From a virus (Duplodnaviria; Caudoviricetes), in the IMG/VR virus record IMGVR_UViG_3300020577_008200, positions 9,037 through 73,036 of that record: 64,000 nucleotides of DNA; one strand, given 5' to 3'. Position 1 is the first letter of the stretch; the number at the start of each line of letters is the position of its first letter. A program made the translations under genes and the position numbers. The notes below the pieces were generated by a model, which did not search any database, had not been told where the DNA came from, and saw only the letters and a list, made by a program, of their open reading frames with translations. Positions 3,469 to 58,436 of the stretch are shown here, one piece after another.

Positions 3469-3993
3469 CTATCTCCAACCGAACATTAATTTTACAGCTT
3501 CTTCTAATAATATTTTAATTATTTTCCCCTCCCCCATACTTATTACGTGCTTTACATTAACAAGCGTTCCATCTTTTTTCTTGGATGATAATCCTAACCA
3601 ATATACATCGCCGGCCTTTTGGAATTTAAGAATAGTATTCCCTAAAGGTGTTTGGTGAAATACGGACCCTCCTTTTCCATCTTTAGCTGGCATTCCAGCA
3701 AATTCCTTAGTTCCATCCAATACACAGAGAAGTTCTCCAACATCTAAAGCTTCCATTTTAAATGTAACTTTTTTATTCTTATCTGTCCAAGCGAAACTAG
3801 CATTTCCCTCAGAGTCAAGTCCAGTTTGTTGAGCGGATTCTAGGAAAAGGTACACATGATGCCTTCCCTGCTTATCCGCTATTTTAATTTGCAGACGCGA
3901 AGCGGCTCCTGAACCCGATTTGTTCGGCTTATAAATTCGATATTCTGGAAAATAAATAGTTTCCATTTTTTGTTTAACATCTTTTTCATTCAT
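3469..3993 (-). CDS. Whirly-like ssDNA-binding protein
   Basis: Motif order matches the plant Whirly domain: IYK..., FAWTDKNKKVTFKMEALDVGEL (cf. YDWxKKQVFSLSVTEIGxL), VFHQTP (cf. FFHDP), C-terminal helix ending MFGW (cf. LIGW). Confidence 0.6.
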   Translation of the reverse strand: MNEKDVKQKMETIYFPEYRIYKPNKSGSGAASRLQIKIADKQGRHHVYLFLESAQQTGLDSEGNASFAWTDKNKKVTFKMEALDVGELLCVLDGTKEFAGMPAKDGKGGSVFHQTPLGNTILKFQKAGDVYWLGLSSKKKDGTLVNVKHVISMGEGKIIKILLEEAVKLMFGWR

Positions 3994-4127
3994 TTACTTG
4001 CTCCAGTGTTATTTCACCCTCTTCACATTGTATAGTGGTGGGTATATACGGAAAATGAGTTTTTTCATCAATATAGGTAATCGTTAGCCTTTTTAAATCA
4101 AAGGCCACTATATTATCCACGATATTA

Positions 4128-4964
4128 TTATTTAGTTTCACCCGGTATTTCATTTTTAACATCCCATGAGGTATCCCAATATGTGGCCCAACTATCAGAC
4201 CAACCTTTAATTTTTTCCGGCTTGCTCTCTGGTTTTTGTTGGAAGCTGCTCAAAGCCCCAGACATTTTAATAGCTGTTGCGTATGGAACTTCATTAATAG
4301 TTCTATACTTATTTCTACCCATATTAATATATTTCATTAAATGAATATCGTTTCGCTTTGCTATATTCACTAAGAAGTTAATTTGAGCTAAAGTTATCTT
4401 TCCTTGTTCAGTAGGATTATCCGCAATTGGAGCTACGGTAGTTACCTCTTCTGCTGCAATGACTCTCTTCAACATTAGAGCTTTTCTTAAAGCTCTAGCT
4501 TCCGCTCTAGTAGAGGCGGTGGAGCTAGCGAATCTGCGATATTCAGCCTCACAGTTTTGCTCATTAACATCTGCTACTTCTTTGAAGTATCTATCTTCTT
4601 TACTATATTCGTCCAATTCTCGATACCATTTAATACCTACTTTGTGTTCTACAGTAGCACAAAAACCGTTCTGAGTAGTTGGGGCTTGAATTACATTACA
4701 CTCACTTAGAAAAATATCTCCTAATAGTTTTCTAGCAACTCTTCGCAAACCGTCTACAGTAGGATTACCATCCATTAGCTCGTCTTCACCAAACTGCTTT
4801 AATACGAAATCAGACCAAGTTTCGTCTACCATAAGTGGGTCTGACAACTCTTCTGCTAGTAATGATTCTTTTCTTTCTCCTGAAAGAATAGGAAGTTCTT
4901 CATTAGCCTCTAAAGAGTTTAAATTGACTGAGTCTAAAACACCTACTTCATTTTCGTCACCCAT
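4128..4964 (-). CDS. Rad52/Sak-like single-strand annealing protein
   Basis: PTVDGLRRVARKLLG...ASSTASTRAEARALRKAL resembles the Rad52-fold helix motif. Small C-terminal helical domain (ITLAQINFL). Confidence 0.5.
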   Translation of the reverse strand: MGDENEVGVLDSVNLNSLEANEELPILSGERKESLLAEELSDPLMVDETWSDFVLKQFGEDELMDGNPTVDGLRRVARKLLGDIFLSECNVIQAPTTQNGFCATVEHKVGIKWYRELDEYSKEDRYFKEVADVNEQNCEAEYRRFASSTASTRAEARALRKALMLKRVIAAEEVTTVAPIADNPTEQGKITLAQINFLVNIAKRNDIHLMKYINMGRNKYRTINEVPYATAIKMSGALSSFQQKPESKPEKIKGWSDSWATYWDTSWDVKNEIPGETK

Positions 4965-4966
4965 TA

Positions 4967-5740
4967 TTACATTACCTCAATTTCAATAAGACGTTTATCT
5001 TCTTCCGGGAAGTTGGATTTAATACAGTTTAAGGTATCTAACACCTTTGTCAAGACTTTTCTTTTATGTATTTGAGAAATACTCTTAACTAAATGTTTAA
5101 CTCTAATTACTACGAAACCGCCATTGATTAACAAACCGTTCTTCTTATTATCTGAAACTAAATGTTTAGCTAAATTTTCTTCACCCCAAATTGGGTAAAA
5201 GTGTGCCGGTCCATCAACTTCTATTACAGTATTTAATTCTGGTATATAGATATCCATTTCTAGTTTTTCACTAGCTACTAAGTGTGTTCTATGGAAATCT
5301 GGTTTATAACCATTTCTTCTAAGCTCTATCACTAAGAATCGTTCTAATTTGGACCCGAATTCTGCGGACTCTCTAACAGCTTCCGAAGCCGCTTTTCTAA
5401 ATTCTTCTCTTTCATCATCAGGCATACTTTCCCAATTTTCCTTAGCAATTTGGGAACGCCTTGCTCTTTCATTCTCGCTCATATCCTGCCACTGTTTAGC
5501 GATAGCTTCACTTATCTTAATTTTAGTAGCTTCGGAACGTTTTTTCCCTTTAGTTGGATGATTATGTCTTCCGCTTTCTAAAGCATCTTTTTGAGCCTCA
5601 CTCTTATCTCTCATCTTAACACCGGCATCAGTCAAGATTCTCCTAACCTTATTTGGGTAGGTGCTAAATTCTTTAGCTATAGCGTAAGTGCTTTTTTTAT
5701 CTATTATGCAAGCATTTATCACATATTCTTCAGCAGTCAT
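4967..5740 (-). CDS. Homing endonuclease-like protein: NUMOD3-like repeats plus a DUF559/Vsr-like PD-(D/E)XK domain
   Basis: KGKKRSEATKIKISEA (NUMOD3-like) and LEMDIYIPELNTVIEVDGPAHF. Confidence 0.7.
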   Translation of the reverse strand: MTAEEYVINACIIDKKSTYAIAKEFSTYPNKVRRILTDAGVKMRDKSEAQKDALESGRHNHPTKGKKRSEATKIKISEAIAKQWQDMSENERARRSQIAKENWESMPDDEREEFRKAASEAVRESAEFGSKLERFLVIELRRNGYKPDFHRTHLVASEKLEMDIYIPELNTVIEVDGPAHFYPIWGEENLAKHLVSDNKKNGLLINGGFVVIRVKHLVKSISQIHKRKVLTKVLDTLNCIKSNFPEEDKRLIEIEVM

Positions 5741-6201
5741 TTTGTTATTTCCAGTAATTTATCAATATTGAAATCTTCTATAATATATTTTACTTTAGTG
5801 TTCCACATACTTTCGATTAGTTTAGCATGGTTTTTACATCTTGCAATTAAAATTAATTTTGGATTGGAATAAATTTCTTCTAATTTTGAGTAATCTTTAT
5901 CAATTAAATTTATCCATTCCAAATCCCAAATGTAAAAGAATTTATTTCTTATAGTAGGAATTCGGATAATATCTTGAGCCGAATTTAAATTAGTCGCAAT
6001 CACAGGCCCGTCATATCCCCACATCTCTACTGATTGCATACAAGAAAATTTAGGGTCTAATGAATACTTAATTAGATTTTCGTAGAAACCAATAATATCA
6101 GTTTTATATTCTTTTTCCAAATATAGATTTATATTATTTATAATAAGATAGCTTAATTGACTAGCCCCGAAACTAGAAACAGCTATTCCTAATTTTCTCA
6201 T
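5737..6201 (-). CDS. Glycosyltransferase-associated hypothetical protein
   Basis: 154 aa, GT-B N-lobe-like (FFYIWDLEW), translationally coupled within the GT cluster. Confidence 0.4.
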   Translation of the reverse strand: MRKLGIAVSSFGASQLSYLIINNINLYLEKEYKTDIIGFYENLIKYSLDPKFSCMQSVEMWGYDGPVIATNLNSAQDIIRIPTIRNKFFYIWDLEWINLIDKDYSKLEEIYSNPKLILIARCKNHAKLIESMWNTKVKYIIEDFNIDKLLEITK

Positions 6202-7079
6202 TTTATCTCCAGTTGGTTGAACACTTGGTTTATACGATGTTCGTAAGTATGGTTATCTAGAATCCAGTTAGTAGAAATTTTACCAATTAATTCTTGATAA
6301 GTTTTGACAGTATCAACCATACAGTAATTACCAAAAAGATTTTCGTATTCTTTATTAGCTCCCAATATTAAACATCGTCCTTTACAAGCTAATATCTTAA
6401 ATATACGTTCGCTAGGTGAATATCCTTTATTATTAGTAACGCTGAGATTCAAATCTGAATTTGATATTATATTACAAAATACATCGTTGTTAGTTATAAT
6501 TCCCAGATGATTTGCTACTGACCAATTGCCGAAACCGTAGATTTTTATTCCAAAATCTAAATATGGATAGATATATTTTTTAATATTCTCCTCTTTGGAG
6601 GGTTCCCACTGGCCGATGAAGCTTATTGGAGAATAATATCTATTATCTATATCTTTTGGTTTAAAACGGGTGATATCAGCAGCGGGTAAGCAGGAGAAGC
6701 ACCTTATACCACTCCAATAAGGTAGGTAGTTTTCAAAATTTTGACTAAACATGGTTTGATATTTAGATTTTAATTGATTTACATATTTTTTTTCATCTTC
6801 AGTAGCATCTTCGTAATCATTTAGAAATATAATAGCTTTGGTTTCATCAAATTTGCTATCTAATAGAACTTTAGTTAATGAGCGTGTTAAATCTCGACTG
6901 TGGCACCAGAACACATCAGGTTGGTAAGTATCAAAAATATCAAAAGAAGATATATTTTCATTACCGTTCCACATTCTCACATCACAATCTTTCCTTAGAG
7001 ACAGAGCGTTACTCCAACCGAGGGAGTGGCTTTGAATGTCGGGTGTGGTTGCCTTTCCTGCAAAAATTAATATTTTCAA
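6198..7079 (-). CDS. CgeB-like (GT-B) glycosyltransferase
   Basis: ISFIGQW...KIYGFGNW...SERIFKILACKG...NHTYEHRI. Confidence 0.7.
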   Translation of the reverse strand: MKILIFAGKATTPDIQSHSLGWSNALSLRKDCDVRMWNGNENISSFDIFDTYQPDVFWCHSRDLTRSLTKVLLDSKFDETKAIIFLNDYEDATEDEKKYVNQLKSKYQTMFSQNFENYLPYWSGIRCFSCLPAADITRFKPKDIDNRYYSPISFIGQWEPSKEENIKKYIYPYLDFGIKIYGFGNWSVANHLGIITNNDVFCNIISNSDLNLSVTNNKGYSPSERIFKILACKGRCLILGANKEYENLFGNYCMVDTVKTYQELIGKISTNWILDNHTYEHRINQVFNQLEIK

Positions 7080-7780
7080 AATTTTCCTTCCCCGGCTAAT
7101 TTTTCAGCCTTTTCAATATCTTTAGAGTCATCTATTTCTTGGATGAACATACTTGGATTTTCATATACTTTTAATTTTAAATTATGTTTACTAATCATTT
7201 TATTAAGTATTTCATAAGTTAAAAATTTATCTTGATAAGAACGGTTTACTATAGCGTTAAATAAGTTCATATCTTTGTAATCTAAATACAGTATATGCGC
7301 CCATTTTTTAAGAATTGAATATGAAAAGTTAACAACTGCTTCATTTTCATATTTAACTCCTATTTCCATTGAGTCAAATTGGTCATTCGTATCTAAAACA
7401 ATTCCACTTTTATCGAAATTTAAATTTTCAATTGTTTCTTTATTAAATATCAAGTCCCCATATACTATCAGGTAGTTATTAGCCGGATATTTTTCTGCTG
7501 CTAAAGATATGCTTTTAGCAACATTAGTTGTTTTGTATTTATAGTTTAGTAAAACTTTTATTAGTTTTGAATCTAATTTTTCTTCTATATAAGTATTAAC
7601 TTTTTCATACTCAAATCCGGCAACTACAACTATTTTGGAATTGGGATATTTATCTGTTAATATTTTAATTTGTCTATGTATTAAATTTTTATCTTCTATT
7701 ATTAGAAGAGATTTAGGGCCGTAAGATTTCATTCTTCTTCCTAAGCCTGCCGCTGGTATAATTATTACTAAATCATCCAT
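7076..7780 (-). CDS. Nucleotidyltransferase (LicC/sugar-phosphate NTase family)
   Basis: IIPAAGLGRRMKSYGPKSLL signature, YGD, C-terminal EIDDSKD. Confidence 0.85.
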   Translation of the reverse strand: MDDLVIIIPAAGLGRRMKSYGPKSLLIIEDKNLIHRQIKILTDKYPNSKIVVVAGFEYEKVNTYIEEKLDSKLIKVLLNYKYKTTNVAKSISLAAEKYPANNYLIVYGDLIFNKETIENLNFDKSGIVLDTNDQFDSMEIGVKYENEAVVNFSYSILKKWAHILYLDYKDMNLFNAIVNRSYQDKFLTYEILNKMISKHNLKLKVYENPSMFIQEIDDSKDIEKAEKLAGEGKF

Positions 7781-8387
7781 TTGTTTTTACTCTTTTAATT
7801 GTATCTGACAGAATGATATCTTTTGAAATTTTGAAATCTTCTATTTTAGTAGTATTTTCTTTTTCAATATTGGAATAAAGAATTTTTGGTAAGTGATATA
7901 GAACATATTTTTCACTAATTCTTAACCATATATCCCAATTTTCTAACACGTTTAGATTTGGATTATAAGAGCCGCATTTATCAAACACTTCTCTTTTAAA
8001 GAGTGCTGTATTTGGTATAGTATAACCATCAGTTATCTTTTTTCTATCGAATGATGTTAAGTATTGTGGAATATTATTATCATTGATGATATTAAAATAA
8101 TCAGTGTAAACTGCTCCAACATAGACTGAATGATTAATTATAGTTTTGAGAGTGTCTTCAATATAAGTAGGAAATAATATTTGCTGACCTTCTATTAATA
8201 GAACATAATCAGTTTTAGCTATAGTTTCCAAACCTTTATTAATAATTTCAGCTTTATTATGATTTCCACCTATTGAAATAACTTTTAAGTTTTTATAGGT
8301 TTGAGACTTAATACTACTAATACATTTTTGAATTTCTTCTTCAGTATTATCTTTATTAATAATAATTATTCCTACTGAATTATCCAT
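7773..8387 (-). CDS. GT2 family glycosyltransferase
   Basis: CISSIKSQTYKN...IINKGL...GAVYTDY...ENWDIWLRI. Confidence 0.8.
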   Translation of the reverse strand: MDNSVGIIIINKDNTEEEIQKCISSIKSQTYKNLKVISIGGNHNKAEIINKGLETIAKTDYVLLIEGQQILFPTYIEDTLKTIINHSVYVGAVYTDYFNIINDNNIPQYLTSFDRKKITDGYTIPNTALFKREVFDKCGSYNPNLNVLENWDIWLRISEKYVLYHLPKILYSNIEKENTTKIEDFKISKDIILSDTIKRVKTNG

Positions 8388-9656: not shown

Positions 9657-10642
9657 GCTCTGCTTGTCCCCTTATATACTATATTAGTAGCTTGACTGAA
9701 TATCTGATTCCAATTAGAAACAAATTGTTCTACTGAGTGATTAAGAAGTATTTGTTTGTTGGCTCTTATTCCTATTGTTCTAAACCATTCTTTATTTTTA
9801 ATATAAATTTCTGCATATTTTAACAGATATTCAGGATATTTTTCGTCAACTAATAAACCTGTCTTTTTATGAGTAATAACTTTATTAATTTCACAGTTAT
9901 CTAAAGCTATTACTACAGCTCCAGTATACATAGCTTTTAGAACTTGTGTGGGTTGAGGAACAGATAATGTTGGGTTGATATAGATACTAGCTTTATTAAA
10001 CTCTTCAATTTCATCTTGCCAATGAATATGTTTAGAAATACCAGGATTGTGACCAATAATTTTTATTGGCAACTTTATGTTATGGAATAATTTCCAGTAG
10101 ATTCCAAACCCATGACTATTTCCTTTTCTTTTCCAACTGTTAATAGCTGTTAGTATTGTTTTACTTTTATTTTCGTTATAACTATATAAATGTTGATTGA
10201 TAGCATTATTTATAATAGTATATTCATTTTCTTTAAAACCCCAACTTTTAGCCTGTTCGTGAGTAACAAATATATTAATATCACCTGAAATTTTTTCATT
10301 ATTATATTTATCAGGATATTCCTGTTCTACTATAACTAATGGGATATGTAATTCTTTTGATATCACAACACATTCTTTTAAATGTTTCTTTCTTCCTAAA
10401 CATAAAATTAAATCAAAAGTTATTCCATTCCCTTTTATTTTATTTATCTCAGTGTAATTTTCTGGGATTAAAGCAACGTCGTTTCTCCATCTTTCCTGTC
10501 TTAAATTGAGAGCGAAAAAGTTATGGTTGGTTTTGCAGAGAAGGCTCTCGTATTCCTCACTGGTTGTGAACAGTAAAATATTAAGCGGCTCTCCATTTTG
10601 ACGAGTAGCCGCTCTAATTATTGAATTTACCGCTGAAGACAT
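9653..10642 (-). CDS. GT4-like glycosyltransferase
   Basis: ASIYINPT...VLKAMYTGAVVI...VITHKKTGLL. Confidence 0.75.
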   Translation of the reverse strand: MSSAVNSIIRAATRQNGEPLNILLFTTSEEYESLLCKTNHNFFALNLRQERWRNDVALIPENYTEINKIKGNGITFDLILCLGRKKHLKECVVISKELHIPLVIVEQEYPDKYNNEKISGDINIFVTHEQAKSWGFKENEYTIINNAINQHLYSYNENKSKTILTAINSWKRKGNSHGFGIYWKLFHNIKLPIKIIGHNPGISKHIHWQDEIEEFNKASIYINPTLSVPQPTQVLKAMYTGAVVIALDNCEINKVITHKKTGLLVDEKYPEYLLKYAEIYIKNKEWFRTIGIRANKQILLNHSVEQFVSNWNQIFSQATNIVYKGTSRA

Positions 10643-10679
10643 AGAAATTACCTGTGTTTAAATTAGTTTGGTGTAACTA

Positions 10680-10708
10680 ATTATACCACATTTTTTACTT
10701 ACCGTCCA
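10680..10708 (-). promoter_or_regulatory. Sigma70-type promoter with extended -10
   Basis: TGGACG-17 nt-TATAAT with a TGn extension, about 40 nt upstream of the ATG at 10642. Confidence 0.65.
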
Positions 10709-11417: not shown

Positions 11418-12516
11418 AGAGTATCCTTTTAATTTGAGAACCTATCACTTCATGTGAGTAATCAAAAACTTTATTGATACCAGCTTCCGATTTCAATTCT
11501 CTTTTTTTATGGTTTTCATAAGCTTCACGCATACACTGTCGAAGATGAGGTATCGAAATAGAACCCCAAAGTTCTTTGCCATAAAATAGCTTGGCCGGAT
11601 TATCTTGTAAACCAAAAACGGGAGTTAGGTTGTAATCAACCTTCCATCCCGTTTCGTCATCTATGTAATCACTATAGCCACCATAACCATTAACAATTGG
11701 TGTTTTACCGAAACCCATACTATCTATACACGGAATTGAAAACCCTTCACCATATGACGTAGAAACAAATACGTTACAGCTATTATGTATACTATAAATT
11801 TCATTATCAGACAAATACTCACTTGGAAGAACTATTTCTTCTTTTGTTTGTCCTAATTTTAGACCGTCTTTTAATTTTTTAATAAAATCTCTACTATTTA
11901 TATTTTCATTTTTTGTATCTAAGAGAAATTTTATTACTATATTAACAGGCTCATTTTTATCAAATTCTAAATGGAATGCTTGAACAAAAGCCCCGAAGTT
12001 CTTACGACGAGAGAAGGAACCAGAGATGGAATAGAAAAGGAAGTCAGTGTGCCTTTCCTGCTCAATTTGTTTGTAGGCTGGATAACTTTGCAAAAATACA
12101 GAAGTGTCGCAACCGAAGGGAACAACTCGAATAGGTTTCCTGATACCGCTCACTTCACAAGCTCGTTTAACAAAATTAGATGGAACCCAAATTTCATCCA
12201 TCATATTTAAACGTTCTGGCCACTGTGACATTTTAAAATCACTAGTATGATAGTTGACATAAGCTATGTTCTTTTGAAACTCACCTTCATAAATTAACAT
12301 TTCTGGTGGAACGTGTTGGATGATTACATCAGTTCCTTTAATCTTTTTGCTTTCTAATTCCAGAAATTTTTCGTCTAATTTTCCTTGAAAGTCATTAAGT
12401 TTAATAGGTCTAATACAAATATTCTCTCCAGTCTCATTTAGAGAAGATATAAGATTCAGAGAACCTTTAGAGGCACCAGTACCATCCCGATATGGACCAA
12501 TATATAATATACTCAT
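11410..12516 (-). CDS. GT4 glycosyltransferase
   Basis: DEIWVPSNFVK, RRKNFG, FVSTSYGEGFSIPCIDSMGFGK. Confidence 0.88.
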   Translation of the reverse strand: MSILYIGPYRDGTGASKGSLNLISSLNETGENICIRPIKLNDFQGKLDEKFLELESKKIKGTDVIIQHVPPEMLIYEGEFQKNIAYVNYHTSDFKMSQWPERLNMMDEIWVPSNFVKRACEVSGIRKPIRVVPFGCDTSVFLQSYPAYKQIEQERHTDFLFYSISGSFSRRKNFGAFVQAFHLEFDKNEPVNIVIKFLLDTKNENINSRDFIKKLKDGLKLGQTKEEIVLPSEYLSDNEIYSIHNSCNVFVSTSYGEGFSIPCIDSMGFGKTPIVNGYGGYSDYIDDETGWKVDYNLTPVFGLQDNPAKLFYGKELWGSISIPHLRQCMREAYENHKKRELKSEAGINKVFDYSHEVIGSQIKRILYE

Positions 12517-12969: not shown

Positions 12970-12976
12970 TGTAATA

Positions 12977-13001
12977 TAAGCCTGTATTTTGGACAGGCTT
13001 A
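12977..13001. other. Intergenic stem-loop
   Basis: TAAGCCTGT-ATTTTGG-ACAGGCTTA is a 9-bp perfect stem with no clear U tract. Confidence 0.5.
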
Positions 13002-13010
13002 GTAAAAGGT

Positions 13011-15049: not shown

Positions 15050-15085
15050 TTGGCAGGGAAGGATGTGATGTGCCTTCTCTGCAAA
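15050..15085. repeat. Tight convergent motif pair (near-palindrome) just 3' of ssb
   Basis: TTGGCAGGGAAGGAT-GTGATG-TGCCTTCTCTGCAAA. Confidence 0.75.
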
Positions 15086-16337: not shown

Positions 16338-16352
16338 AACTATCTCCTTTTA

Positions 16353-25847: not shown

Positions 25848-26893
25848 TAGACTTTCCTTAATAGTTCTTTCCAATCGTTTAAGTTTCGTTCAAAAGAAAA
25901 GTGTTTAATAGCGGCCTTGCGACCGTTTTCAGAAATACTTTTAGCTAATGTTTTATCTTTAATTAGCAGGAGAAGCATCTCACGCAATTCCCTAATATCA
26001 TCGCTCCAGAAACCTGAGACACCATTTTCAATAAATTTGTGTGCTTCAAAGGTAGGCATATCTTCTCGCGGACTTCCTATCTTTGGACCTACTGAAACTA
26101 GTGGAATACCAGTAGATAGAGCTTCCATAAAAGAATATGTAAATGGGCCGGGTTTAGTGCAAGTAGAGAAGTATACTCCGGCTCTCTTTCTTAGATTATG
26201 AAGTTCCGTAGGAGTTAAATTTCCAGCGGAAAATTCAATATCTTCATTCTCGAAGCCGCCTACTATTCTATTCATTCCCTGAGTAACTAAATTATATTCC
26301 GGCCAAGCTGCATGTTGACCCCGTTTCTTCATCCATTTATTAATAGTGAGAACGTAATCATCTTCGCCGGTCCAACCTTTGTATAATTCAGTATCTACGA
26401 ACGGACGAATAATAGCGTCGTTTTTTGCTAAGCGATTGATATATCTTTCAGTTGGTGAGTATGCTACAGTCTTAGTATATTTAAGATATTTACTAAAATG
26501 CATTTGAGGTTGACCAATATATCTCATGATAATTGGTTTACCTTTAATAGATTCCCAATTCAAAGTTAAATTTTCTTCAAAGTGAGCAATAACAACTAAA
26601 TCAAAAAGTTGAGCAAAATCTTTTTTAACTCTATTATAGTAAGCCCCGAGAACTTCATTAATAGTTAAAGTGTCAAACTTTTTAACTAATCCTTCATAAT
26701 TGTGGCCAGCTTTATATTTTTCTAATAATTCTTCATCAAACTTAATATTCAAAGCCCCATCTTTAGTTGGATGTAGAGGTTTTCGAGGGTCTATATAGTG
26801 CCCAATAGAAAAAACTTGGTGACCAAGCTTATCTAATACTGTTAACTCGTCCGCTTCTAGCGTTTCATGGCAACTTAGGTATAGAATCTTCAT
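25847..26893 (-). CDS. GT4-like glycosyltransferase
   Basis: FSIGHYIDP, YSFMEALSTGIPLVS, FIENGVSGF. Confidence 0.8.
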   Translation of the reverse strand: MKILYLSCHETLEADELTVLDKLGHQVFSIGHYIDPRKPLHPTKDGALNIKFDEELLEKYKAGHNYEGLVKKFDTLTINEVLGAYYNRVKKDFAQLFDLVVIAHFEENLTLNWESIKGKPIIMRYIGQPQMHFSKYLKYTKTVAYSPTERYINRLAKNDAIIRPFVDTELYKGWTGEDDYVLTINKWMKKRGQHAAWPEYNLVTQGMNRIVGGFENEDIEFSAGNLTPTELHNLRKRAGVYFSTCTKPGPFTYSFMEALSTGIPLVSVGPKIGSPREDMPTFEAHKFIENGVSGFWSDDIRELREMLLLLIKDKTLAKSISENGRKAAIKHFSFERNLNDWKELLRKV

Positions 26894-27878: not shown

Positions 27879-28304
27879 TCAATTTTTCTCCGTAGATTCA
27901 ACCACCGGAGAGGCTGAAGGATTTGGATTTTCTGGTTGTGTGGTGCCTCTCTGCAAATCTTCCGAAGCAGTTCTATCAACCAGCGTCAGTTTGGAACTGC
28001 CATCAGGAAGGTTTTCAATGGACAATAGTTTATTATAATCTTTATCTGTCACAATGTCAAATAGAATTTTATCTAATAAATATTCACCATTATGTCCTAA
28101 TGTAATAGCAGCTAGAATAGCATATTGTTGAACTTGCAGATTTTTTAATTCTTGTTCTTTTCTTGCTAGTTGGTCATCTTTGATTATCAGATACTCATCT
28201 CTTAATTGACACAACCTAAAAATAGTAATAAAATTTTGTTCTAAATCTTTAAGCTTCGCTTTTTTAATTTTATATTGATTGTATTTTCTAGATATCCAAC
28301 TCAT
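27879..28304 (-). CDS. Hypothetical protein
   Basis: 141 aa; its low-complexity C-terminal tail carries a motif copy. Confidence 0.55.
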   Translation of the reverse strand: MSWISRKYNQYKIKKAKLKDLEQNFITIFRLCQLRDEYLIIKDDQLARKEQELKNLQVQQYAILAAITLGHNGEYLLDKILFDIVTDKDYNKLLSIENLPDGSSKLTLVDRTASEDLQRGTTQPENPNPSASPVVESTEKN

Positions 28305-32367: not shown

Positions 32368-33459
32368 TTATCCTAAATGCTCAATAGTTAATTGGGACCA
32401 GCTCTCAAATTGCTCTACATGCTCTAGAAGCCAATCATAATCGAACCAGCTTCCTTTGTCAAGAGCTTCGTCATGAAAATTCAAAATTGAATCGCAATTG
32501 ACTTCAATTAAGTGTATTACTCCAAAATGCACTCGTCCCACAGCGTTAGAATTATCGTAAATTAAGCCGAGAACTTTATTGTCAATAGAATATTTTTCAC
32601 CCGTGTTTCCATTAATTCCATTTAAATCAAAATCTACTTCTTCTTTAAGTTCTCTAATCATTCCCGCCTCATAAGAAGCTCCCGGCTCACCATCGCATGG
32701 ATTTAAATGTCCACCCACTCCTAAACTATATTTATCATGTAGCCGTGATTCTCCACCCTTCTTAGTTCTCTTATAGACTAAGAAATTTTTACCACATTTA
32801 AAAACACAGTAAGGGATTAATTGAAGAAAATTTTCATTCGTCTCCGCTTCATCTCTATCCATATAAGTTAGAGAAGAAAGGAAGATTGGATTTTGCAGGA
32901 AAGGCACCCCATCACAAAAAGACTCAGAGGGAGAGGAAGGTGGATAAGGCAACTGGCTTGATGAGCCTTCGGAGTTTTGTTGTGGGCGATTGCCTTCTCT
33001 GCTTATATTTGTCGTACAAACTCCGGTGAAGGCACCAAGTTTTTCAAACACGCTGCGGGGAAACACAAGAACTTTCTCTTTTTCTGGCATATCATTTATC
33101 TCTTTAAGTTTATTGGAAAATTTTTCTACTATTTTTCTAGGTAAGATAGATTCGTTAGTTAACCACGCCGGTACATAATCTTTTGCATCTTGTAATAATA
33201 TTCCTCCTGTTGCCGGTGGAGTTTGATACTGTTGGCTTTTATAGATAATCCGAATTGGTTCACCTTCCATATTAACCTCTGGTATTGGATACGGATATTG
33301 ATTCGGAATACTGTGTCCGTATTCTTCTTCTTTAGCTTTAAGAAGTCTCTTAAATTCTTTCATTACTTCCGAGTTTTCATTCTTCTTCGGCTCTTTTGAA
33401 GAATATTTTGAAGGAACGTGTTTTTGAAAAGCATCTATCGCCTCTTTAGGCCAACACAT
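32368..33459 (-). CDS. Nudix-family phosphoesterase (YmaB/COG4112-like) with an N-terminal extension and an internal low-complexity insertion
   Basis: EKVLVFPR...MDRDEAETNENFLQLIPY...GESRLHDKYSLGVGGHLN...RELKEEV...VGRVHFG...FESWSQ. Confidence 0.82.
   Translation of the reverse strand: MCWPKEAIDAFQKHVPSKYSSKEPKKNENSEVMKEFKRLLKAKEEEYGHSIPNQYPYPIPEVNMEGEPIRIIYKSQQYQTPPATGGILLQDAKDYVPAWLTNESILPRKIVEKFSNKLKEINDMPEKEKVLVFPRSVFEKLGAFTGVCTTNISREGNRPQQNSEGSSSQLPYPPSSPSESFCDGVPFLQNPIFLSSLTYMDRDEAETNENFLQLIPYCVFKCGKNFLVYKRTKKGGESRLHDKYSLGVGGHLNPCDGEPGASYEAGMIRELKEEVDFDLNGINGNTGEKYSIDNKVLGLIYDNSNAVGRVHFGVIHLIEVNCDSILNFHDEALDKGSWFDYDWLLEHVEQFESWSQLTIEHLG
32892..33005. repeat. Convergent motif pair bracketing an in-frame insertion in the Nudix gene
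   Basis: TTTGCAGGAAAGGCA ... TGCCTTCTCTGCTTA. Confidence 0.8.
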
Positions 33460-41912: not shown

Positions 41913-42686
41913 CTATCTTCCTCTATTTCTTAAGATACAACCATCACATTGATATGTTGTTTTATCGTCACCTTCTAGCCTTCCGGGAGCCATCTTAGAA
42001 CTAATTTTATATCTGCGATTGCATCCTCGACATGTGACAATAACACCGACATCTGGAGGTCGTTTTTGAATAAATTTATGGGCTGCAATAGAATTCTTGC
42101 TTCTAACTTTATTATCAAATAAAAGAGTGTCTTCGGCAGCGTAAGCTTTATTATCTACAAACTTATTAACACGCTTCTTAATTTGAAACTGTACTCTGGA
42201 ACATTGTCTTCCACCAGTTGGTGTACTATCTGAACCATCTAAAGGTTGCTCATTGAAATTAGTTGGTAAAATTAATTTTGTTTTATTAGCCATAGTTGGC
42301 CCAGGAAGAATTAAACTATTTTCTAGAACTGGTTCTTCATCGACGGAGTTTGCAGAGAAGGCACCGTCATCAACAGGCTGTTCAGAAAAATTTTGTTCTT
42401 CTATCAACTCTTCTGATGGTAAATCATTTTCATAATCATCTGGTAATGGAGAAAAAGTTCCCTCTAAAGATGTAGGAGAAGGCTCTGGGCGAGCCGGGGA
42501 ATCTGTTTCTGTAGATGTGTGGTGCTTTCCCTGCAAATCCGAGAAAACGGTTTTCAATTTTTGAACGTGTTCATCGGTGATTTGAGAAGGTTCAAGTTTT
42601 TCACCTGTTATCATGGAGTAACCTTTGGAGATTTTAGTCATATCTCCAGCAAGGATACCCTGTTTAATTAATTCTAATGCGCTCAT
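41913..42686 (-). CDS. Hypothetical protein with an acidic low-complexity linker and a C-terminal CxxC...CxxC
   Basis: CRGC...CDGC; the linker holds a convergent motif pair. Confidence 0.6.
   Translation of the reverse strand: MSALELIKQGILAGDMTKISKGYSMITGEKLEPSQITDEHVQKLKTVFSDLQGKHHTSTETDSPARPEPSPTSLEGTFSPLPDDYENDLPSEELIEEQNFSEQPVDDGAFSANSVDEEPVLENSLILPGPTMANKTKLILPTNFNEQPLDGSDSTPTGGRQCSRVQFQIKKRVNKFVDNKAYAAEDTLLFDNKVRSKNSIAAHKFIQKRPPDVGVIVTCRGCNRRYKISSKMAPGRLEGDDKTTYQCDGCILRNRGR
42349..42537. repeat. Convergent motif pair in a linker region
   Basis: TTTGCAGAGAAGGCA ... TGCTTTCCCTGCAAA. Confidence 0.8.
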
Positions 42687-45001: not shown

Positions 45002-45477
45002 TAATCTAAATCTCGCAATCTGGCTTTAACTGATTTACCTTCTACAAAAGCTTCTCTTGGTTTTTCTTCAGTAGTTGTTCGTTCAATTGGTGTGTGATTT
45101 GCAGAGGAGGCACCCTCATCACGCTTCTTTAACTTGTTCAATTTCTCTTGTTCTAGTTTAAAATCATCGTCTAACCATTTAGCCTTTAATGAATAACATT
45201 TCCAATTTTTCTTAAGTGCAGCTATAATAGCCGCCGGTTCATACATCTTTAATAAACTAGTAGCAGTAAGTAACTGCATTAGATACGTTTTTTTCCACTT
45301 ATCTGTATTCCAGAATTTAACTGGAAGTACACATTTTTCTTTCATTGCTAAACGTTCACAGACTAACTCTGCTATGTAATTTTGCGGTGTACAATAGCTA
45401 TTTTCTTCCCCATACTTTGATTTATAACGTGAAGCTTCGCTTTGTTCCTGAGCCATTTCTTGCTCCATTAAGTTCAT
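45001..45477 (-). CDS. Hypothetical protein
   Basis: 158 aa. Confidence 0.6.
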   Translation of the reverse strand: MNLMEQEMAQEQSEASRYKSKYGEENSYCTPQNYIAELVCERLAMKEKCVLPVKFWNTDKWKKTYLMQLLTATSLLKMYEPAAIIAALKKNWKCYSLKAKWLDDDFKLEQEKLNKLKKRDEGASSANHTPIERTTTEEKPREAFVEGKSVKARLRDLD

Positions 45478-46912: not shown

Positions 46913-47347
46913 TCATCTTCCGGTTGCTGGAATTACCGAATCACTATATAGAGATTGTCCACCTTTTACTTTTTGTATTTCATCTGAAATCATACCTGCT
47001 GAAGCTGTCATAGCGGTAAATGTGCCACGTCTAGCAAATGCTTCTCTAAGAATAGATTTATTTTCTCTAGCCTTAATAACTTCTGGCTGTTTTACTTGAG
47101 GAGTATCTAAATCTAAATTTGGCAGAGAAAGCACAGGGTCAGAAGAAGAGAGAGTTGCCGAGTCAAGGGAGTCGGGCTTTGTTTTTTGTGAGGATTGCCT
47201 TTCCTGCTCATATTTTTTTTGAGCTTCTACCGCCATGTAGACTTCAATTAAAGTTTTCCCCTTTTTCAAAATATGGGCTAGTTCTTCGCTAGTTCTATCT
47301 AGATTAGCGTCAATATAAAATTTATCCGCAATATTTAACTCATCCAT
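46913..47347 (-). CDS. Hypothetical protein with a low-complexity linker
   Basis: 144 aa; the linker coincides with a convergent motif pair. Confidence 0.55.
   Translation of the reverse strand: MDELNIADKFYIDANLDRTSEELAHILKKGKTLIEVYMAVEAQKKYEQERQSSQKTKPDSLDSATLSSSDPVLSLPNLDLDTPQVKQPEVIKARENKSILREAFARRGTFTAMTASAGMISDEIQKVKGGQSLYSDSVIPATGR
47119..47210. repeat. Convergent motif pair in a linker region
   Basis: TTGGCAGAGAAAGCA ... TGCCTTTCCTGCTCA. Confidence 0.8.
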
Positions 47348-50504: not shown

Positions 50505-52945
50505 GATTCACAAATTCCCCCATTCTTCATAGCTTCAATTGAACAAACAGTTGGAGTTTTACTCACTGTTGATTTTTCTACTTTGCTAGCTCCGCGACTT
50601 CTTAAGTAGTAAGTAGTCTTGAGACCTTTTTCATAAGTATACATATACTTTTCAGCTAGATGTTTGAGACTTGGGTTGTCATTATAAATATTGAAACTAA
50701 TTCCCATATCAATCCATTGCTGTCTAGCTGCTGTGGCATCTACTAAGTAATGATAATCAATATCAAAAGCTGTCTTAGATTGCTTCTTTAAATCTTCTGG
50801 TAAATTTAATTTACTAATATCTCCATCCACCTGTTTAATTGCGGTTAGTAACTCTTCACTCCAAACTCCTAATTTCTTAGCTTTTTCCACAAACCATTCA
50901 TCAATCATGGTGAATGAACCACTTAATGTACCATAAGTGAAGAGAACTGAATAGTCAGGCTCAATACTTTGTCTACATCCAGCTATGTAACTAATTGTAG
51001 CTGTTGGAGCAATTGCTCTGACACTAGCATTTCTCATACCATGAGATATTACTAATTGCCGCAAAGCATTCCATTTAAAATCACTTATCTTGTTTTTAGG
51101 AACATCTTTAGTTTTACCACGTTCTTCAAAGAGTTTATCACACATATCTTGAGGAAAGCTCCCTTCGGACCATGTAGAACCTTCGTATGTAGAAAATACT
51201 CCACGTTCTTTAGCTAGTTTACAAGACGTTTTAATAGCATGATAGGAAACAAATTCTTCTAATTCACTAGCTAATTCTACAGCCTCTTGACTTTCATATG
51301 GAATATCTAAAGCATGAAGCACATCCACGAAACCCATTTCGCCAAGCCCAATTGGTCTATGGTCTAAATTAGATTTTCTTCCTTCTGGCGTAGCATAGAA
51401 ATTCAAGTCTATATTGTTATCTAACATTCTAATCATAGTAGCTACAGTTTTAGCTAATTTATTTTTATTTAACTTCCATTTACCAGTTTTTTCATTATAC
51501 TCTAAATGAGCTTTATAATTAGGAGAAGCTAGAGTGCAAATTGCAGTATCACCAATAGAAGTTTTATTTCCATCTTTATCATATGAACTACTAGTAGTAT
51601 GTCTAATTACCTCTGTACACAAATTACTACTATGAACTACACCGGCATTACTATTAGAATAACAGATGTTAGAAGCGTCTTTATATGTTATCCAAGGGTG
51701 TCCGGTTTCAGATAGCGAAACTAATATTTTCTTATAGAGAGACTTAGCAGAGAAAGTCCTCCATAACTTTATTTCGCCTTTCTGAGCCTTTTTAACATAG
51801 TAATTATAACGTTTCTCGAATTCCTCGCCGTACAAATCATGTAAGTCTGGGACTTCATCAGGTGAAAATAGATACCAGTTTTCGTCCTTAGTCACCTTCT
51901 CCATGAATAAGTCCGGTATCCAAACCGCAGTGTTCATATCATGGCATCGGCGTCTATCATCACCAGTATTCTTTCTTAAATCAATGAAGTCTTCAATATC
52001 TATATGCCATACTTCTAAGTATGAACACCCGGAACCTTTCCGGAGTCCGCTTTGATTCCAGGAGACTAGCACATCATTAAATATCTTCATGAATGGGATT
52101 ACCCCGCTAGAAGTTCCATTAGTTCCTTTAATATGTGAGCCGGCTCCTCGTACTGGAGTCCAGTCTACTCCCAGACCTCCAGCATATTTACTTAGTTTAG
52201 CTTGGTCATGCATTGACCCCATAATACTATCTAAACTATCACCTACTGTTGAAAGGAAACAGCTAGATAATTGTGAGTGAGTAGTCCCACTGTTGAATAG
52301 TGTGGGAGTAGAAGGCATTCCTAAGAACTGAGACATTACTTCGTAAAACTCTAAAGCTTTTTTATCCTTATCTTTCTCATTAATAGCTAGCCCCATAGCA
52401 ATTCGCATGAAGAAGGCTTGCGGAGTTTCTTTTTTTATACTGTCAATATGAATAAAATATCTATCGTAGAGAGTCTGAATACCTAGATACTTAAATAGAT
52501 TATCTCTGTCTATATCTATTTTTTCAGATAAAAATTCTAAATCAAAAGTCAAAAGTCTCGGGTCAAGTCGGCCAACCTCTACCAATTCATTGACATTTTC
52601 GATAAATGATTGCCGGTACTGTTCTTCAAATAATTCTTGTTCTACTCCACAACCGAATACTTCTTTGTATATATTATTTAATAGCAAACGGGCTGCAACA
52701 AAAGAATAATTTGGTTCTTTTTCAATTTTACTCTTAGCGGATAAAATCAAAGCTTTGTCAATTTCAATAGTTGATATTTTATCAAACAACTGAACATGGG
52801 CATCCAGAACAACCTCAGACGCGGAGACATCGGTGAGGCCGACACATGCCCTTCCTGCTGATTTATTTATTTTATCTAAGTTTAGATTTTCGAGTGAACC
52901 ATCTCTTTTAGTAACTAGAATATTGGACATGAGTGAAGCCTTCAT
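50495..52945 (-). CDS. nrdA: Ribonucleotide reductase large subunit with an ATP-cone
   Basis: VTKRDG ATP-cone, PSTPTLFNSG, QLSSCF, SSNLCTEV, CTLAS, AIAPTATIS, C-terminal CESCQ. Confidence 0.95.
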   Translation of the reverse strand: MKASLMSNILVTKRDGSLENLNLDKINKSAGRACVGLTDVSASEVVLDAHVQLFDKISTIEIDKALILSAKSKIEKEPNYSFVAARLLLNNIYKEVFGCGVEQELFEEQYRQSFIENVNELVEVGRLDPRLLTFDLEFLSEKIDIDRDNLFKYLGIQTLYDRYFIHIDSIKKETPQAFFMRIAMGLAINEKDKDKKALEFYEVMSQFLGMPSTPTLFNSGTTHSQLSSCFLSTVGDSLDSIMGSMHDQAKLSKYAGGLGVDWTPVRGAGSHIKGTNGTSSGVIPFMKIFNDVLVSWNQSGLRKGSGCSYLEVWHIDIEDFIDLRKNTGDDRRRCHDMNTAVWIPDLFMEKVTKDENWYLFSPDEVPDLHDLYGEEFEKRYNYYVKKAQKGEIKLWRTFSAKSLYKKILVSLSETGHPWITYKDASNICYSNSNAGVVHSSNLCTEVIRHTTSSSYDKDGNKTSIGDTAICTLASPNYKAHLEYNEKTGKWKLNKNKLAKTVATMIRMLDNNIDLNFYATPEGRKSNLDHRPIGLGEMGFVDVLHALDIPYESQEAVELASELEEFVSYHAIKTSCKLAKERGVFSTYEGSTWSEGSFPQDMCDKLFEERGKTKDVPKNKISDFKWNALRQLVISHGMRNASVRAIAPTATISYIAGCRQSIEPDYSVLFTYGTLSGSFTMIDEWFVEKAKKLGVWSEELLTAIKQVDGDISKLNLPEDLKKQSKTAFDIDYHYLVDATAARQQWIDMGISFNIYNDNPSLKHLAEKYMYTYEKGLKTTYYLRSRGASKVEKSTVSKTPTVCSIEAMKNGGICESCQ

Positions 52946-55651: not shown

Positions 55652-55663
55652 TTTACTAACTCC

Positions 55664-57646
55664 TTAGATTAATTTGAATAAAGCCTTTTCAATATCATCT
55701 TGTCTTCCTGGGAAACCCTGAAAGTTTGATATTGAGAAACATTCTCCAGTTCTCATCATATTTTCCATAACACTCTTCTTAACTCTTAAAGTCCCAACAG
55801 GCAATTTAACTCCTGTATTAAAATCTTTAAGTGTTCCCATTACGTCTCCCCAGCTATTAAGAATAATAACATAAGGGTCCGAATATTCATCATCAATACC
55901 TATTACACAATTGTGAACCGTTATTCCATTTAATATATAAGAATGAACATCTTCGACTTCAAAATTATAAACTAGTCCCTTATAATTTTCAAATTCAACT
56001 GAGTCCACATTCATAGAATAATAATTATTTTTCCATCTATTAAATTTTGGAGTTACATTTTCGTTATTTTCAAACCATTCTATTACATAGACTTTATTCC
56101 AATTTTTAGCATAATCCGACTTATGAATTCTTTCTGAAACATATGGTTTTTCACCAAAAGATAATAAAATAGAGTGTATTTGGTCTATTAATTTAACACT
56201 AGTATTTACTATTCTCTTACAATTCTTGCTATCTTTTACTAAATTTCCATCTCCATCAAAAATTCCTTTAAGTACCTCTTTTAGATTCCATTTTCCATTA
56301 AATAACCATTCTGGTAATACTTTATTAGTTTTCTTATTAAACCATTTAATCATACTATTTGCTAAAACCGAAGAATATGTTATTATTCTAGTATAATTTC
56401 CTTTATATTTTACATGAGGTTCTAAACCTAATTTTTCAATAGACTTACAAGCTCTATCTATTTCTTCAATTTGATGAGAACCTAAAGTTATTACCATTTT
56501 ATGATTTGCGTCAGCACCACCATCCGCTACATATAAACCGAATAGCCACGCTATATCATCATCTTCTATTAATCTATTTAATTTAGACTCCTTAATCCAT
56601 TGAGGAGTTTCTATATTATTAGATAAGTTTATTAATGGGCAAACAACCTTGTCTCCCTTTTTAACATCTTCAGCATTTATCCAGTCAAAAGTAATATCTT
56701 CATCTTCTTTAGTGTATTTACATTCATCGTTTTTCATTATTAACACTGGATGATTTTTTGTAACCTTAATTGCTAATGCTCCTTTAGCCTTAATTACAAC
56801 TATTTCTTCGTCTACCTCTCTTTGAAACACTTCCGTTACCTTATGTAAAGCACCATCATTACCATAAACATTATCCCCTATTTTCACATCCTCAATATAA
56901 GATGTTAACTCTGATTTAACTACACTATTAGGTAGACCGCACATCTGGTGGCCCCAATTTCCGCTAGCTTGGTGAAAACCAGTTGAGTCTGGAGTCATGG
57001 TAAAACCTTGATTGCTAGCAATTGTACATGGATATCCATTACAGATAGCATTCAATAATTTATCCCAAGTATCAATTTTAGCAGCAGATTTAACTAAATG
57101 TTTTTGTCCTAAAGGCTTCCATTTATTTAGATATTGGCTTCCATTAGAACTTCCCCAAGATTTAGCTACTGAACCGCTATATGGAGGCAAACCTTCGGCA
57201 TCAGAATTAATGATTCCATATTTAACAACTCCATCTGCCGCCCATGAGCCAAGAGAACCATCTTCCGAACCTAATTGATTTCCACCAATATCAACTCTAC
57301 TAATTCCATAGATATATGGCGGGAAAACTTTGGTATAAACTTCATTTTCGCCATTCAGTAGAATTTCACAACACATTAAATGTTCAATCGCATTCTTCAT
57401 ACCAAATGAGACACAGTCGCCTATTTCTTGAGGATAGTTTTCGGTGTCCTTACCAAGAACTTTTCGAGTAATATCAAATAACATCATACGTCTACTGGCA
57501 GCACCAACCACGTTTCTTAATTGAAATCTTTTGAAAGATTTACTATTTTTAAGTAAATTCCATTGATATTTAGCGGTATCTTCACCTAACCAACCTTTAA
57601 TACGTCCTGTTTGATAGTCTTTTTGTAACATAATTGACATTTTCAT
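55664..57646 (-). CDS. Papain-like (C1) cysteine peptidase with an intein
   Basis: QEIGDCVSFG (Gln/Cys), WGHQM|CVIG (His), IILNSWG (Asn). Confidence 0.88.
   Translation of the reverse strand: MKMSIMLQKDYQTGRIKGWLGEDTAKYQWNLLKNSKSFKRFQLRNVVGAASRRMMLFDITRKVLGKDTENYPQEIGDCVSFGMKNAIEHLMCCEILLNGENEVYTKVFPPYIYGISRVDIGGNQLGSEDGSLGSWAADGVVKYGIINSDAEGLPPYSGSVAKSWGSSNGSQYLNKWKPLGQKHLVKSAAKIDTWDKLLNAICNGYPCTIASNQGFTMTPDSTGFHQASGNWGHQMCGLPNSVVKSELTSYIEDVKIGDNVYGNDGALHKVTEVFQREVDEEIVVIKAKGALAIKVTKNHPVLIMKNDECKYTKEDEDITFDWINAEDVKKGDKVVCPLINLSNNIETPQWIKESKLNRLIEDDDIAWLFGLYVADGGADANHKMVITLGSHQIEEIDRACKSIEKLGLEPHVKYKGNYTRIITYSSVLANSMIKWFNKKTNKVLPEWLFNGKWNLKEVLKGIFDGDGNLVKDSKNCKRIVNTSVKLIDQIHSILLSFGEKPYVSERIHKSDYAKNWNKVYVIEWFENNENVTPKFNRWKNNYYSMNVDSVEFENYKGLVYNFEVEDVHSYILNGITVHNCVIGIDDEYSDPYVIILNSWGDVMGTLKDFNTGVKLPVGTLRVKKSVMENMMRTGECFSISNFQGFPGRQDDIEKALFKLI
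55910..56941 (-). mobile_element. Intein (344 aa) with LAGLIDADG endonuclease
   Basis: Starts CGLPNSVV; block B VTKNHP; GLYVADG and GIFDGDG; ends VYNFEVEDVHSYILNGITVHN; +1 residue is Cys. Confidence 0.92.
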
Positions 57647-58416
57647 TTCACCTCTTTTAGACCGGAAGAAATACCTTTAAATACATCTACATAGTCTTGT
57701 TTTGTCTTAAGTTTACCGTCAAGTTTAAGTTGATATAGGTAGTCTTGTAATTTATTAAAGAACTCATCCCACTCGGCTACTGGAACGTTAACACTAGCTA
57801 AAGCTTGTCTATTTGCTTCTTTAGTATCAGCTAGAGCCTGTTTCGTTTTATCAACATCTAATTCTGTGCCGGCAGCAATTTTAGCTGACATGCCACCAAA
57901 CGAATCTGCTAATTTAGAGGCAGCTAAAGCTTTAGTTTCCGTTTTTACAGTTTCATTTACAGTTCTAGTTATAAATTGAGGAAATGTTTCCAAAGATTTA
58001 ACTGTTATATCAACGTCAAATAGTTTATTGTAAACTAATACTTGATTTATTCTTCCTAATCTATCAGTATATAGATATAAATAACTTACACTAGCAAAGA
58101 CTTTATATTTATTTTCAGTAGAATTAAAGGTTACAAATTTTCCATCATTTTTGAAATCTTTATTAGTTAACAACCCGTCTTTATTAACAATAAATACTTT
58201 CCAACTTACTGAGTTACTAGAATAATTAGGAGGTTTAGTTCCTATGGGAGAAAGATTTAATTTTACTTCCTTACCCGATTCAACACTTAAATTACCTTCA
58301 ATCTTTTGAGATGGTACAACCAAATCAGCAGAGAAAGCACTGCCTACACTCGAAAATACTAACGTTAGAGCCACAAGGGAGGCGGTGGAAAACTTTTTGA
58401 GAACGACTTTTAACAT
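57643..58416 (-). CDS. Secreted/exported hypothetical protein
   Basis: Signal peptide ending AFSA; Ig-like N-terminal part and helical C-terminal part. Confidence 0.65.
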   Translation of the reverse strand: MLKVVLKKFSTASLVALTLVFSSVGSAFSADLVVPSQKIEGNLSVESGKEVKLNLSPIGTKPPNYSSNSVSWKVFIVNKDGLLTNKDFKNDGKFVTFNSTENKYKVFASVSYLYLYTDRLGRINQVLVYNKLFDVDITVKSLETFPQFITRTVNETVKTETKALAASKLADSFGGMSAKIAAGTELDVDKTKQALADTKEANRQALASVNVPVAEWDEFFNKLQDYLYQLKLDGKLKTKQDYVDVFKGISSGLKEVK

Positions 58417-58436
58417 GGTGTGCCTTTTCCTGCAAA
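58325..58436. repeat. Convergent motif pair spanning a start codon and signal-peptide region
   Basis: TCAGCAGAGAAAGCA ... TGCCTTTTCCTGCAAA. Confidence 0.75.

Follow-up and report, generated by a model that had tools for sequence, protein, structure and literature searches.

Why does an AT-rich phage genome carry, both inside and between its genes, a GC-rich 15-letter word whose copies face each other in pairs? The question is raised by IMG/VR record IMGVR_UViG_3300020577_008200 (Duplodnaviria; Caudoviricetes), a single 73,036-bp contig of which bases 9037-73036 were analyzed as one 64,000-nt stretch (hereafter the window). An initial annotation, made from the letters of the window alone, had picked out the word, TNNGCAGRRRARGCW, and proposed that its copies form convergent pairs, i.e. 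a plus-strand copy followed by a minus-strand copy, and constitute a candidate cis-site system, with Chi-like sites, loop anchors or enzyme loading sites as candidate roles. Positions given below are those of the window, with the strand as a suffix, except for genome positions, which count along the whole contig. Lettered pairs and individual copies are listed in Table 1.

Copy number, form and orientation of the word

The annotation had counted 20 copies in the window, 15 of them exact, each with a T three bases ahead of GCAG. These counts were reproduced. The word matches exactly at 15 places, the relaxed copies are 15050+, 27943- (1-nt deletion), 51744+, 52847- and 58422- (1-nt insertion), and the T is found in 20/20. 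Four further copies are present in the 9 kb of contig upstream of the window, where they form two convergent pairs (genome 100/114 and 6895/6933), one of which is an overlapping hairpin of 29 nt (genome 100-128). Dinucleotide shuffles of the window give 0.06 expected exact matches, in keeping with the rough figure of well under 0.1 proposed earlier, and the observed number is thus ∼250 times that expected by chance. When codons were shuffled synonymously, keeping each protein and the codon usage of each gene, 1.75 ± 0.78 matches were obtained (maximum of five in 300 runs) versus the 15 observed, and therefore neither protein sequence nor codon bias explains the word. The enrichment that had been predicted over a codon-preserving shuffle is thus present. 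The signal had also been claimed to lie in the DNA rather than in a peptide motif and, indeed, copies occur in all frames and on both strands, the five translations originally listed (FAGKA, EQERH, LQGKH, SREGN, and SAGRA) being correct. The motif was defined post hoc; a relative of the phage (L024, see below) provides independent replication.

The copies share a common form, consisting of a weakly A-rich lead, the core T-N-N-GCAG-RRRAR-GCA, and a tail rich in C and poor in G, in which YCAC is frequent. The information content of the 15-mer is ∼20 bits. Variation within the core is restricted. In 22/22 copies analyzed, positions 8, 9, 10, and 12 are A or G, with no transversions, and the one departure from this purine-only pattern is at position 11, which is A in 20 copies, G in one and T in one. 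In the three bases ahead of the invariant T, C is avoided. The 20 nt that follow the word are C-rich and G-poor on either strand (P ≤ 2e-4 per strand), even where this opposes the coding-strand bias of G over C. The two strands are equally represented among the 22 copies, with no strand or replichore skew. Copies coincide with GC-rich islands in the AT-rich genome, and their loci are distributed across the whole 73 kb at a density of ∼1 per 3 kb.

All eight pairs of copies within 400 nt of each other are convergent, none being divergent or tandem, and not one of 20,000 random placements/orientation shuffles matched this. Across the whole contig, only 2/23 neighboring copies have the same orientation (P = 3e-5). 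The convergent rule put forward by the annotation thus withstands permutation, although its count of nine convergent pairs stands only in part. The nine spans and the two orphans, 3860- and 45098+, are as originally described. However, the three long "pairs" (1.1-2.0 kb) keep the convergent order but extend across conserved genes, so that their status as functional units cannot be demonstrated, and 52847- could be a chance match. We regard six or seven short pairs in the window as secure, and "nine pairs" as too strong. The interiors of the pairs share no sequence and no size (spans of 29-378 nt), and there is no repeat family outside the arms.

With this order, any transcript has the purine arm upstream of the pyrimidine arm, which raises the question whether the pairs act in RNA. 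A purine arm resembling a Shine-Dalgarno sequence (SD) would pair with the pyrimidine arm in the mRNA and control translation, processing or stability. Host-type translation signals in the phage use SD (44/75 starts) and, in pair C, one arm is the SD region of a gene in which its partner lies 97 nt inside. However, partner arms resemble each other no more than random copies do, and the 10-bp arm duplex carries about one mismatch each. On the transcribed strand there are eight G.U versus nine A.C oppositions, and therefore wobble pairing is not favored. As the annotation had concluded, partners do not co-vary. In folding compared with shuffles, only the 36-nt pair A does better (z = -4.35), longer pairs having z of about -1.7 to +0.1, and single copies (15-mer plus tail) do not self-fold (z between -1.2 and +0.3). 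No matches were obtained in scans for Rfam families or tRNAs, and most pairs are within translated open reading frames (ORFs). For pairs A and F, an intrinsic terminator was also rejected, because neither is among the terminator-like sites of window positions 1-20000. An RNA stem was rejected on the grounds of absent co-variation, the 8:9 ratio and the Rfam result, and an RNA-level role of any kind appears very unlikely.

Short intragenic segments bracketed by inverted repeats are also the layout expected if the arms were recombination sites at which an invertase flips the intervening segment, as in intragenic invertons or a shufflon. Inverting pairs B, C, D, E or F introduces at least one stop codon in 5/5 cases, which led us to reject a coding switch of this type. 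No invertase gene was found among the ∼50 ORFs of this partial contig that were scanned using Pfam and PHROG. In contigs from four sequencing runs there were no joints, skips or strand switches at any arm, bearing in mind that contigs cannot exclude rare forms. We therefore consider invertase sites to be highly improbable.

Table 1. Copies of the 15-letter word in the window, and other recognized genes of the contig
Feature	Position (strand)	Span (nt)	Context and remarks
Orphan copy	3860..3874 (-)		Exact, TAAGCAGGGAAGGCA; ORF 3469-3993, codon 40; degenerate pyrimidine partner (CCTTTTCC) 11 nt downstream, within a GCGGAT...ATCCGC inverted repeat
Pair F	6687..7064 (6687+ / 7050-)	378	Interior is AT-rich coding sequence of ordinary type (glycosyltransferase-like ORF); 7050- lies 12 nt after stop of upstream gene
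Copy	10532..10546 (+)	1533 (10532/12050)	TTTGCAGAGAAGGCT; ORF 9653-10642, codon 33; nominal partner of 12050-
Copy	12050..12064 (-)		Exact; glycosyltransferase domain, ORF 11410-12516, codon 151
Pair A	15050..15085 (15050+ / 15071-)	36	15050+ relaxed, 15071- exact; intergenic hairpin right after stop of ORF 15086-15541
Copy	25963..25977 (+)	1995 (25963/27943)	Exact, antisense; conserved ORF 25847-26893
Copy	27943..27957 (-)		1-nt-deletion variant (TTTGCAGAGA-GGCA) with C-rich tail; nominal partner of 25963+
Pair D	32892..33005	114	NUDIX-like gene 32368-33459; arms encode conserved SREG and FLQN
Pair E	42349..42537	189	Acidic disordered linker, ORF 41913-42686, which adjoins dnaB
Orphan copy	45098..45112 (+)		Exact; poorly conserved C-terminal part of ORF 45001-45477
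Pair B	47119..47210	92	ORF 46913-47347, without homologs; interior reads as low-complexity peptide
Copy	51744..51758 (+)	1118 (51744/52847)	Relaxed (TTAGCAGAGAAAGTC); inside nrdA; weak member
Copy	52847..52861 (-)		One mismatch; conserved ATP-cone of nrdA; C-rich tail absent
Pair C	58325..58436 (58325+ / 58422-)	112	58422- is the SD region of ORF 57643-58416; 58325+ encodes signal-peptide end (SAFSAD)
Intein-bearing genes	23619-25874; 55664-57646
Free-standing LAGLIDADG gene	35036-35770		Opposite strand
Extracytoplasmic function (ECF)-like sigma factor	58637-59152
Split DnaE, DnaB, primase, RecA, PD-(D/E)XK nuclease, NrdA, NrdB, ThyX, ClpP, several glycosyltransferases

Two details of gene layout adjoin the arms. 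In pair F, the assignment of TTG 7079 as start of the glycosyltransferase-like ORF is doubtful, a GTG/ATG with the SD sequence AAGGAAAG being present ∼95 nt downstream. If that start is used, copy 7050- is intergenic. Next to pair C, a small ORF of ∼65 amino acids (aa) at 58438-58640 (-) fills the gap between the ECF-like sigma gene and the secreted-protein gene (ORF 57643-58416), ending 21 nt before the ATG of the latter. Arm 58422- is in this 21-nt gap, whereas 58325+ is the arm inside the secreted-protein gene.

Copies within genes and their counterparts in relatives

How did such a word come to stand inside genes? When genes with copies are compared with their homologs, the word mostly occupies existing sequence. 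Same-length overlay holds for at least six copies or pairs, and only the interior of pair D is an insertion compared with homologs. Copy 25963+ lies in a ∼20-nt same-length patch that reads EMLLLLI where the 58%-identical ortholog in relative L020 has SFISTVL, with both flanks conserved and ungapped. Similarly, in the deoxyribosyltransferase gene of L024, copy 8692- encodes CAFPAD in place of the TQFDEE of the window ortholog, again ungapped, and its YCAC tail derives from conserved Cys-Asp-Trp codons. The variable C-terminal stretch that contains 45098+ is unchanged in length compared with orthologs, homologs of the pair-C gene align from their N termini without insertion, and the glycosyltransferase profile match at 12050- shows no added length. 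The linker in which pair E lies is present in all relatives.

Pair D allows such a locus to be followed through several lineages. The NUDIX-like protein has 363 aa in the window versus ∼200-260 aa in homologs, and the ∼30 extra residues align exactly between the two arms. In the distant but syntenic L020, the site reads AGC AAA GAA GGG CAT GTG TTG CTG CAA AAC. In L024 it reads TTAGCAGGGAAGGCA-CT-CTCCTGCAAAA, an exact copy and its overlapping partner, which encodes SREGTLLQN with no insertion compared with the family. In L019, degenerate arms have 24 nt between them, and 84 nt separate the arms in the window. At the D arm, the codons AGC for Ser and GGC for Gly are retained in three lineages. 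It follows from this series that the arms sit on ancestral coding sequence and that only the DNA between them grew. Viewed from the protein, the loop between SREG and (F/L)LQN has 0, 24, and 84 extra nt in L024 (14791-15384), L019 (990-1766), and the window (32368-33459), respectively, a stepwise expansion in a compact enzyme.

At close range, DNA comparisons covered one relative, L024 (15.7 kb), and one 2-kb fragment. L024 is the closest relative for which there is DNA, its DnaB being 81% identical to that of the window, and it contains two exact copies of the word versus 0.01 expected, one of them at the pair-D site. The pair-E locus of L024 has a left arm with a 1-nt deletion and a right arm (TTTGCAGGGAAGGTC) ∼190 nt away, the linker between them being unalignable. 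The recurrence in relatives that the annotation had asked for is therefore found, at the same gene positions, in this one close relative. Despite deep divergence, the word is found again at corresponding positions within genes. Copies have also been gained and lost between the window and L024, and the word is absent from L020, L025, and L026, whose DnaB is 60-71% identical. Its presence in L024 and its absence at that distance confine it to a narrow lineage. Protein-anchored searches of viral and JGI metagenome contigs using the pair-D and pair-E genes revealed no new relatives, a word search found no homolog of the pair-E protein, and 90% clusters hold near-identical strains only.

Population data touch one arm of pair E. 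Runs X1 and X2 contain a second haplotype of region 41937-42336 that is ∼8% divergent in two blocks (41973-42048 and 42189-42336) between identical flanks. The right block ends 13 nt before arm 42349+, which may be the boundary of a recombination patch; this is a single case, and other bubbles are away from arms.

Possible identities: recognition sites or mobile repeats

The lineage dependence of the pair-D interior brings in the main rival explanation, that the word belongs to a decaying family of tiny selfish palindromic repeats comparable with the doublets of repetitive extragenic palindromic (REP) units known as REPINs, Rickettsia palindromic elements (RPE) or Coxiella miniature inverted-repeat transposable elements (MITE). 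Such repeats would have been copied in, some of them in frame, by an enzyme acting in trans and encoded by the host or by phage sequence missing from the contig. This enzyme would bind the 15-mer as the end of the repeat, and divergence or expansion of the interiors would have come later. Several features agree with this, i.e. inverted doublets with conserved outer ends coinciding with GC-rich islands, a NUDIX interior that is extra compared with homologs and varies in length between lineages, a word that is lineage-restricted with copies gained and lost between the window and L024, and a few arms that share longer similarity (7050-/47196- and genome 100/15050). REPs within genes, and REP units in opposite orientation, have been described (PMC3733652).

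In contrast, the 15-mer is not a hairpin by itself, which led us to reject a classical REP identity despite the inverted doublets (8/8). There are no target-site duplications, the flanks (TNN ... NNA) not being direct repeats, and the interiors differ in both sequence and size, so that a classical MITE was likewise rejected. In-frame insertion of the MITE or RPE type is contradicted by the same-length copies, with the pair-D interior as sole exception. The R positions vary almost only between purines, which points to constraint rather than neutral decay. Among the scanned ORFs of the partial contig there is no transposase, REP-associated tyrosine transposase (RAYT), recombinase or reverse transcriptase that could mobilize a repeat. 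When 185,000 prokaryote genomes were searched for short hairpin pairs, at least 120 scattered single hairpins turned up but no genome with the family, and therefore no host or donor was identified. Pattern scans of IMG/VR, using the word with its tail or short hairpin pairs, returned only single, unrelated chance matches. Palindromic repeats are a real possibility, albeit not a likely one.

The reading that we favor, and hold tentatively, is that the copies are dispersed polar protein-recognition sites that act as head-to-head pairs and are kept by selection or conversion drive, each pair being a bipartite site at which a DNA-transaction protein docks or is loaded. Recognition sites fit better than insertions because the information content is high with purine-restricted variation, the arms are constrained independently, the overlay falls on tolerant sites, and the word persists amid divergence. 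A sequence-specific factor would read single copies, most likely as double-stranded DNA, and the functional unit would consist of two head-to-head copies with a spacing from overlapping to ∼0.4 kb, possibly 2 kb. The word is mostly overlaid on existing sequence, coding or not, with the length unaltered, and is placed where proteins tolerate change, i.e. in linkers, loops, gene ends, and signal peptides. Copies would then be held by selection or conversion-type drive, the sequence between arms being left to drift and change length. The role of the bound protein might be in recombination, repair, replication or genome organization. As judged from these comparisons, the word looks lineage-specific and appears to match no known element.

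Several points weigh against recognition sites. Apart from a NUMOD3 protein, the ECF-like sigma factor, and the LAGLIDADG endonucleases, the scanned ORFs contain no obvious reader. Four arms are shared with L024; conservation of three of them is confounded by conserved peptides (SREG, LLQN, and SDLQG), and the fourth is of ambiguous orthology, the alignment being offset by 27 nt. Direct contact of two bound proteins is hard to reconcile with spacings of -1 to 350 bp. The longer similarity between a few arms and the growth of the NUDIX interior (0 to 24 to 84 nt) fit a duplicative repeat better. A further similarity, linking the tail of 3860- to that of 25963+ (P about 0.004), is lost once 276 comparisons are corrected for, and the latter tail is ancestral coding sequence.

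A more specific form of the recognition-site reading, which we consider doubtful, is a previously undescribed phage cis-site system whose factor acts only on head-to-head pairs of the 15-nt polar word. It would possibly make or process breaks or loops between the arms, thereby seeding recombination-dependent replication or exchange. Changes in length would then be concentrated in inter-arm segments, accounting for the growth of the NUDIX loop, and the word would spread by short-patch conversion onto tolerant sequence.

Alternatively, the copies might be polar sites at which a DNA-translocating nuclease or helicase is attenuated or loaded, following the logic of Chi, of the FtsK orienting polar sequences (KOPS) or of Type III enzymes. 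Having both orientations at a locus would accommodate enzymes that approach from the left or from the right, or the two sites would face breaks that arise between them. The word is polar and is found in both orientations at nearly every locus over the whole 73 kb, and the phage encodes RecA and a PD-(D/E)XK nuclease. The sites of Type III and Type ISP restriction enzymes are, as a rule, convergent with variable spacing, and the guide words of SpoIIIE/FtsK (GAGAAGGG and GGGNAGGG) are similar to the purine core of the word. However, ∼20 bits is far above any known Chi or KOPS word (5-8 nt), strand or replichore skew is lacking, and a strict plus-then-minus order is unnecessary for such a function. 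In addition, Mod/Res, AddAB or RecBCD genes were not found in the contig. We consider polar sites of this kind quite unlikely, and a Chi-like site proper was rejected, given ∼20 bits over 15 nt and copies split equally between strands.

Other identities were tried and rejected. A dispersed operator of the P1 type is contradicted by the intragenic position of most sites, and no repressor was recognized in the scanned ORFs. A sigma-54 or phage RNA polymerase promoter does not agree with the GG/GC spacing, the lack of a conserved block upstream or the antisense position of half of the copies. A clustered regularly interspaced short palindromic repeat (CRISPR) was ruled out by the form of the sequence.

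Phage context and comparison with known systems

The contig, which has a G+C content of 33%, is probably an incomplete phage genome, because terminal repeats are lacking and its first bases are already within an ORF of >2,070 aa (genome 1-6210, upstream of the window). This ORF has weak matches to internal-virion/tape-measure families. Relatives reach 117-177 kb, and no capsid or terminase gene was recognized in the contig. The minus strand carries nearly all genes from window position 3469 on. Exactly between the convergent blocks of plus- and minus-strand genes stands a bidirectional terminator (window 3430-3451) that has a perfect 8-bp stem and T-rich tails (TAGCCGTC...GACGGCTA). Megablast found no match to cultured phages, and the DnaE fragment is at most 30% identical to that of any cultured phage. 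The sequencing runs in which window sequence is found include a riverine metagenome. The DnaB of L024 (3683-6199; 838 aa) has a LAGLIDADG intein, whereas that of the window (40447-41910; 487 aa) is intein-free. A palindromic word (TTTAGCTAA / TTAGCTAAA), unrelated to the 15-mer, occurs 17 times versus 2.7 expected from dinucleotide content (whole contig, both strands).

Why might such a word matter? To our knowledge, almost no dispersed oriented words beyond promoters and operators are known in lytic-type phages, and Chi, KOPS, uptake sequences, and REPs each exposed part of the DNA-handling machinery. The word described here overrides coding sequence, with several codons changed at once in conserved enzymes. 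Its head-to-head rule is strict, and it is found again in a relative in which neutral sites are saturated. Together, these properties imply either a strong benefit or a strong drive. A reader, if found, would reveal a new phage mechanism of genome maintenance or counter-defense, or a new route by which small repeats colonize genes. In practical terms, the word could be used as a lineage marker for an uncultured group of freshwater phages.

The known systems nearest in behavior are uptake sequences and the C1 operators of phage P1. The uptake signal sequences (USS) of Pasteurellaceae and DNA uptake sequences (DUS) of Neisseria are similar in being short oriented words that are over-represented in one lineage, inside and between genes. 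Their copies sit on coding sequence without change of length, like those of the phage word. Over-represented oriented words in and between genes, often as inverted pairs, are described for uptake sequences (PMC2346458). The phage word likewise is an over-represented oriented word that lies over coding sequence, free of indels, and recurs in a relative. However, uptake sequences are 9-12 nt long, have a density of ∼1 per kb, are cellular and linked to competence, and most of their copies are unpaired, whereas the phage word is a 15-mer with a tail, has ∼1 copy per 3 kb, is head-to-head in nearly every copy and is not known to be tied to an uptake-like process. The C1 operators of phage P1 have an asymmetric 17-bp consensus, with 22 sites dispersed over the phage genome (PMC8546580). 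Unlike the phage word, which is mostly in ORFs with widely variable spacing within pairs, they are at promoters and have a known repressor. Some of them are overlapping inverted pairs.

REP/REPIN elements, Rickettsia RPE, and Coxiella MITEs share with the phage word the inverted doublets, the conserved ends, a GC-rich composition in an AT-rich genome, and the translation of some copies (PMC3733652). In contrast, a REP unit is itself a hairpin with a GTAG or CGTC tag, and its copies are insertions that are alike over their full length. The phage word is not self-complementary, its interiors are unrelated, and most copies are same-length overlays. Integron attC sites consist of two short inverted cores (GTTRRRY / RYYYAAC) around a poorly conserved center of variable length. 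They resemble the phage pairs in their conserved inverted cores, purine/pyrimidine degeneracy, and free center, but are found at the ends of gene cassettes and need the IntI integrase, whereas the phage word is inside genes and no integrase was found. We know of only the Type III and Type ISP restriction enzymes that need two asymmetric head-to-head sites at variable distance. Their sites are 5-7 bp long and head-to-head pairs of them are avoided by phages, whereas the 15-mer is enriched in exactly that layout, in a contig in which no Mod/Res genes were found. A strict head-to-head rule, with a spacing that ranges from overlap to hundreds of bp, is what makes this phage word unusual.

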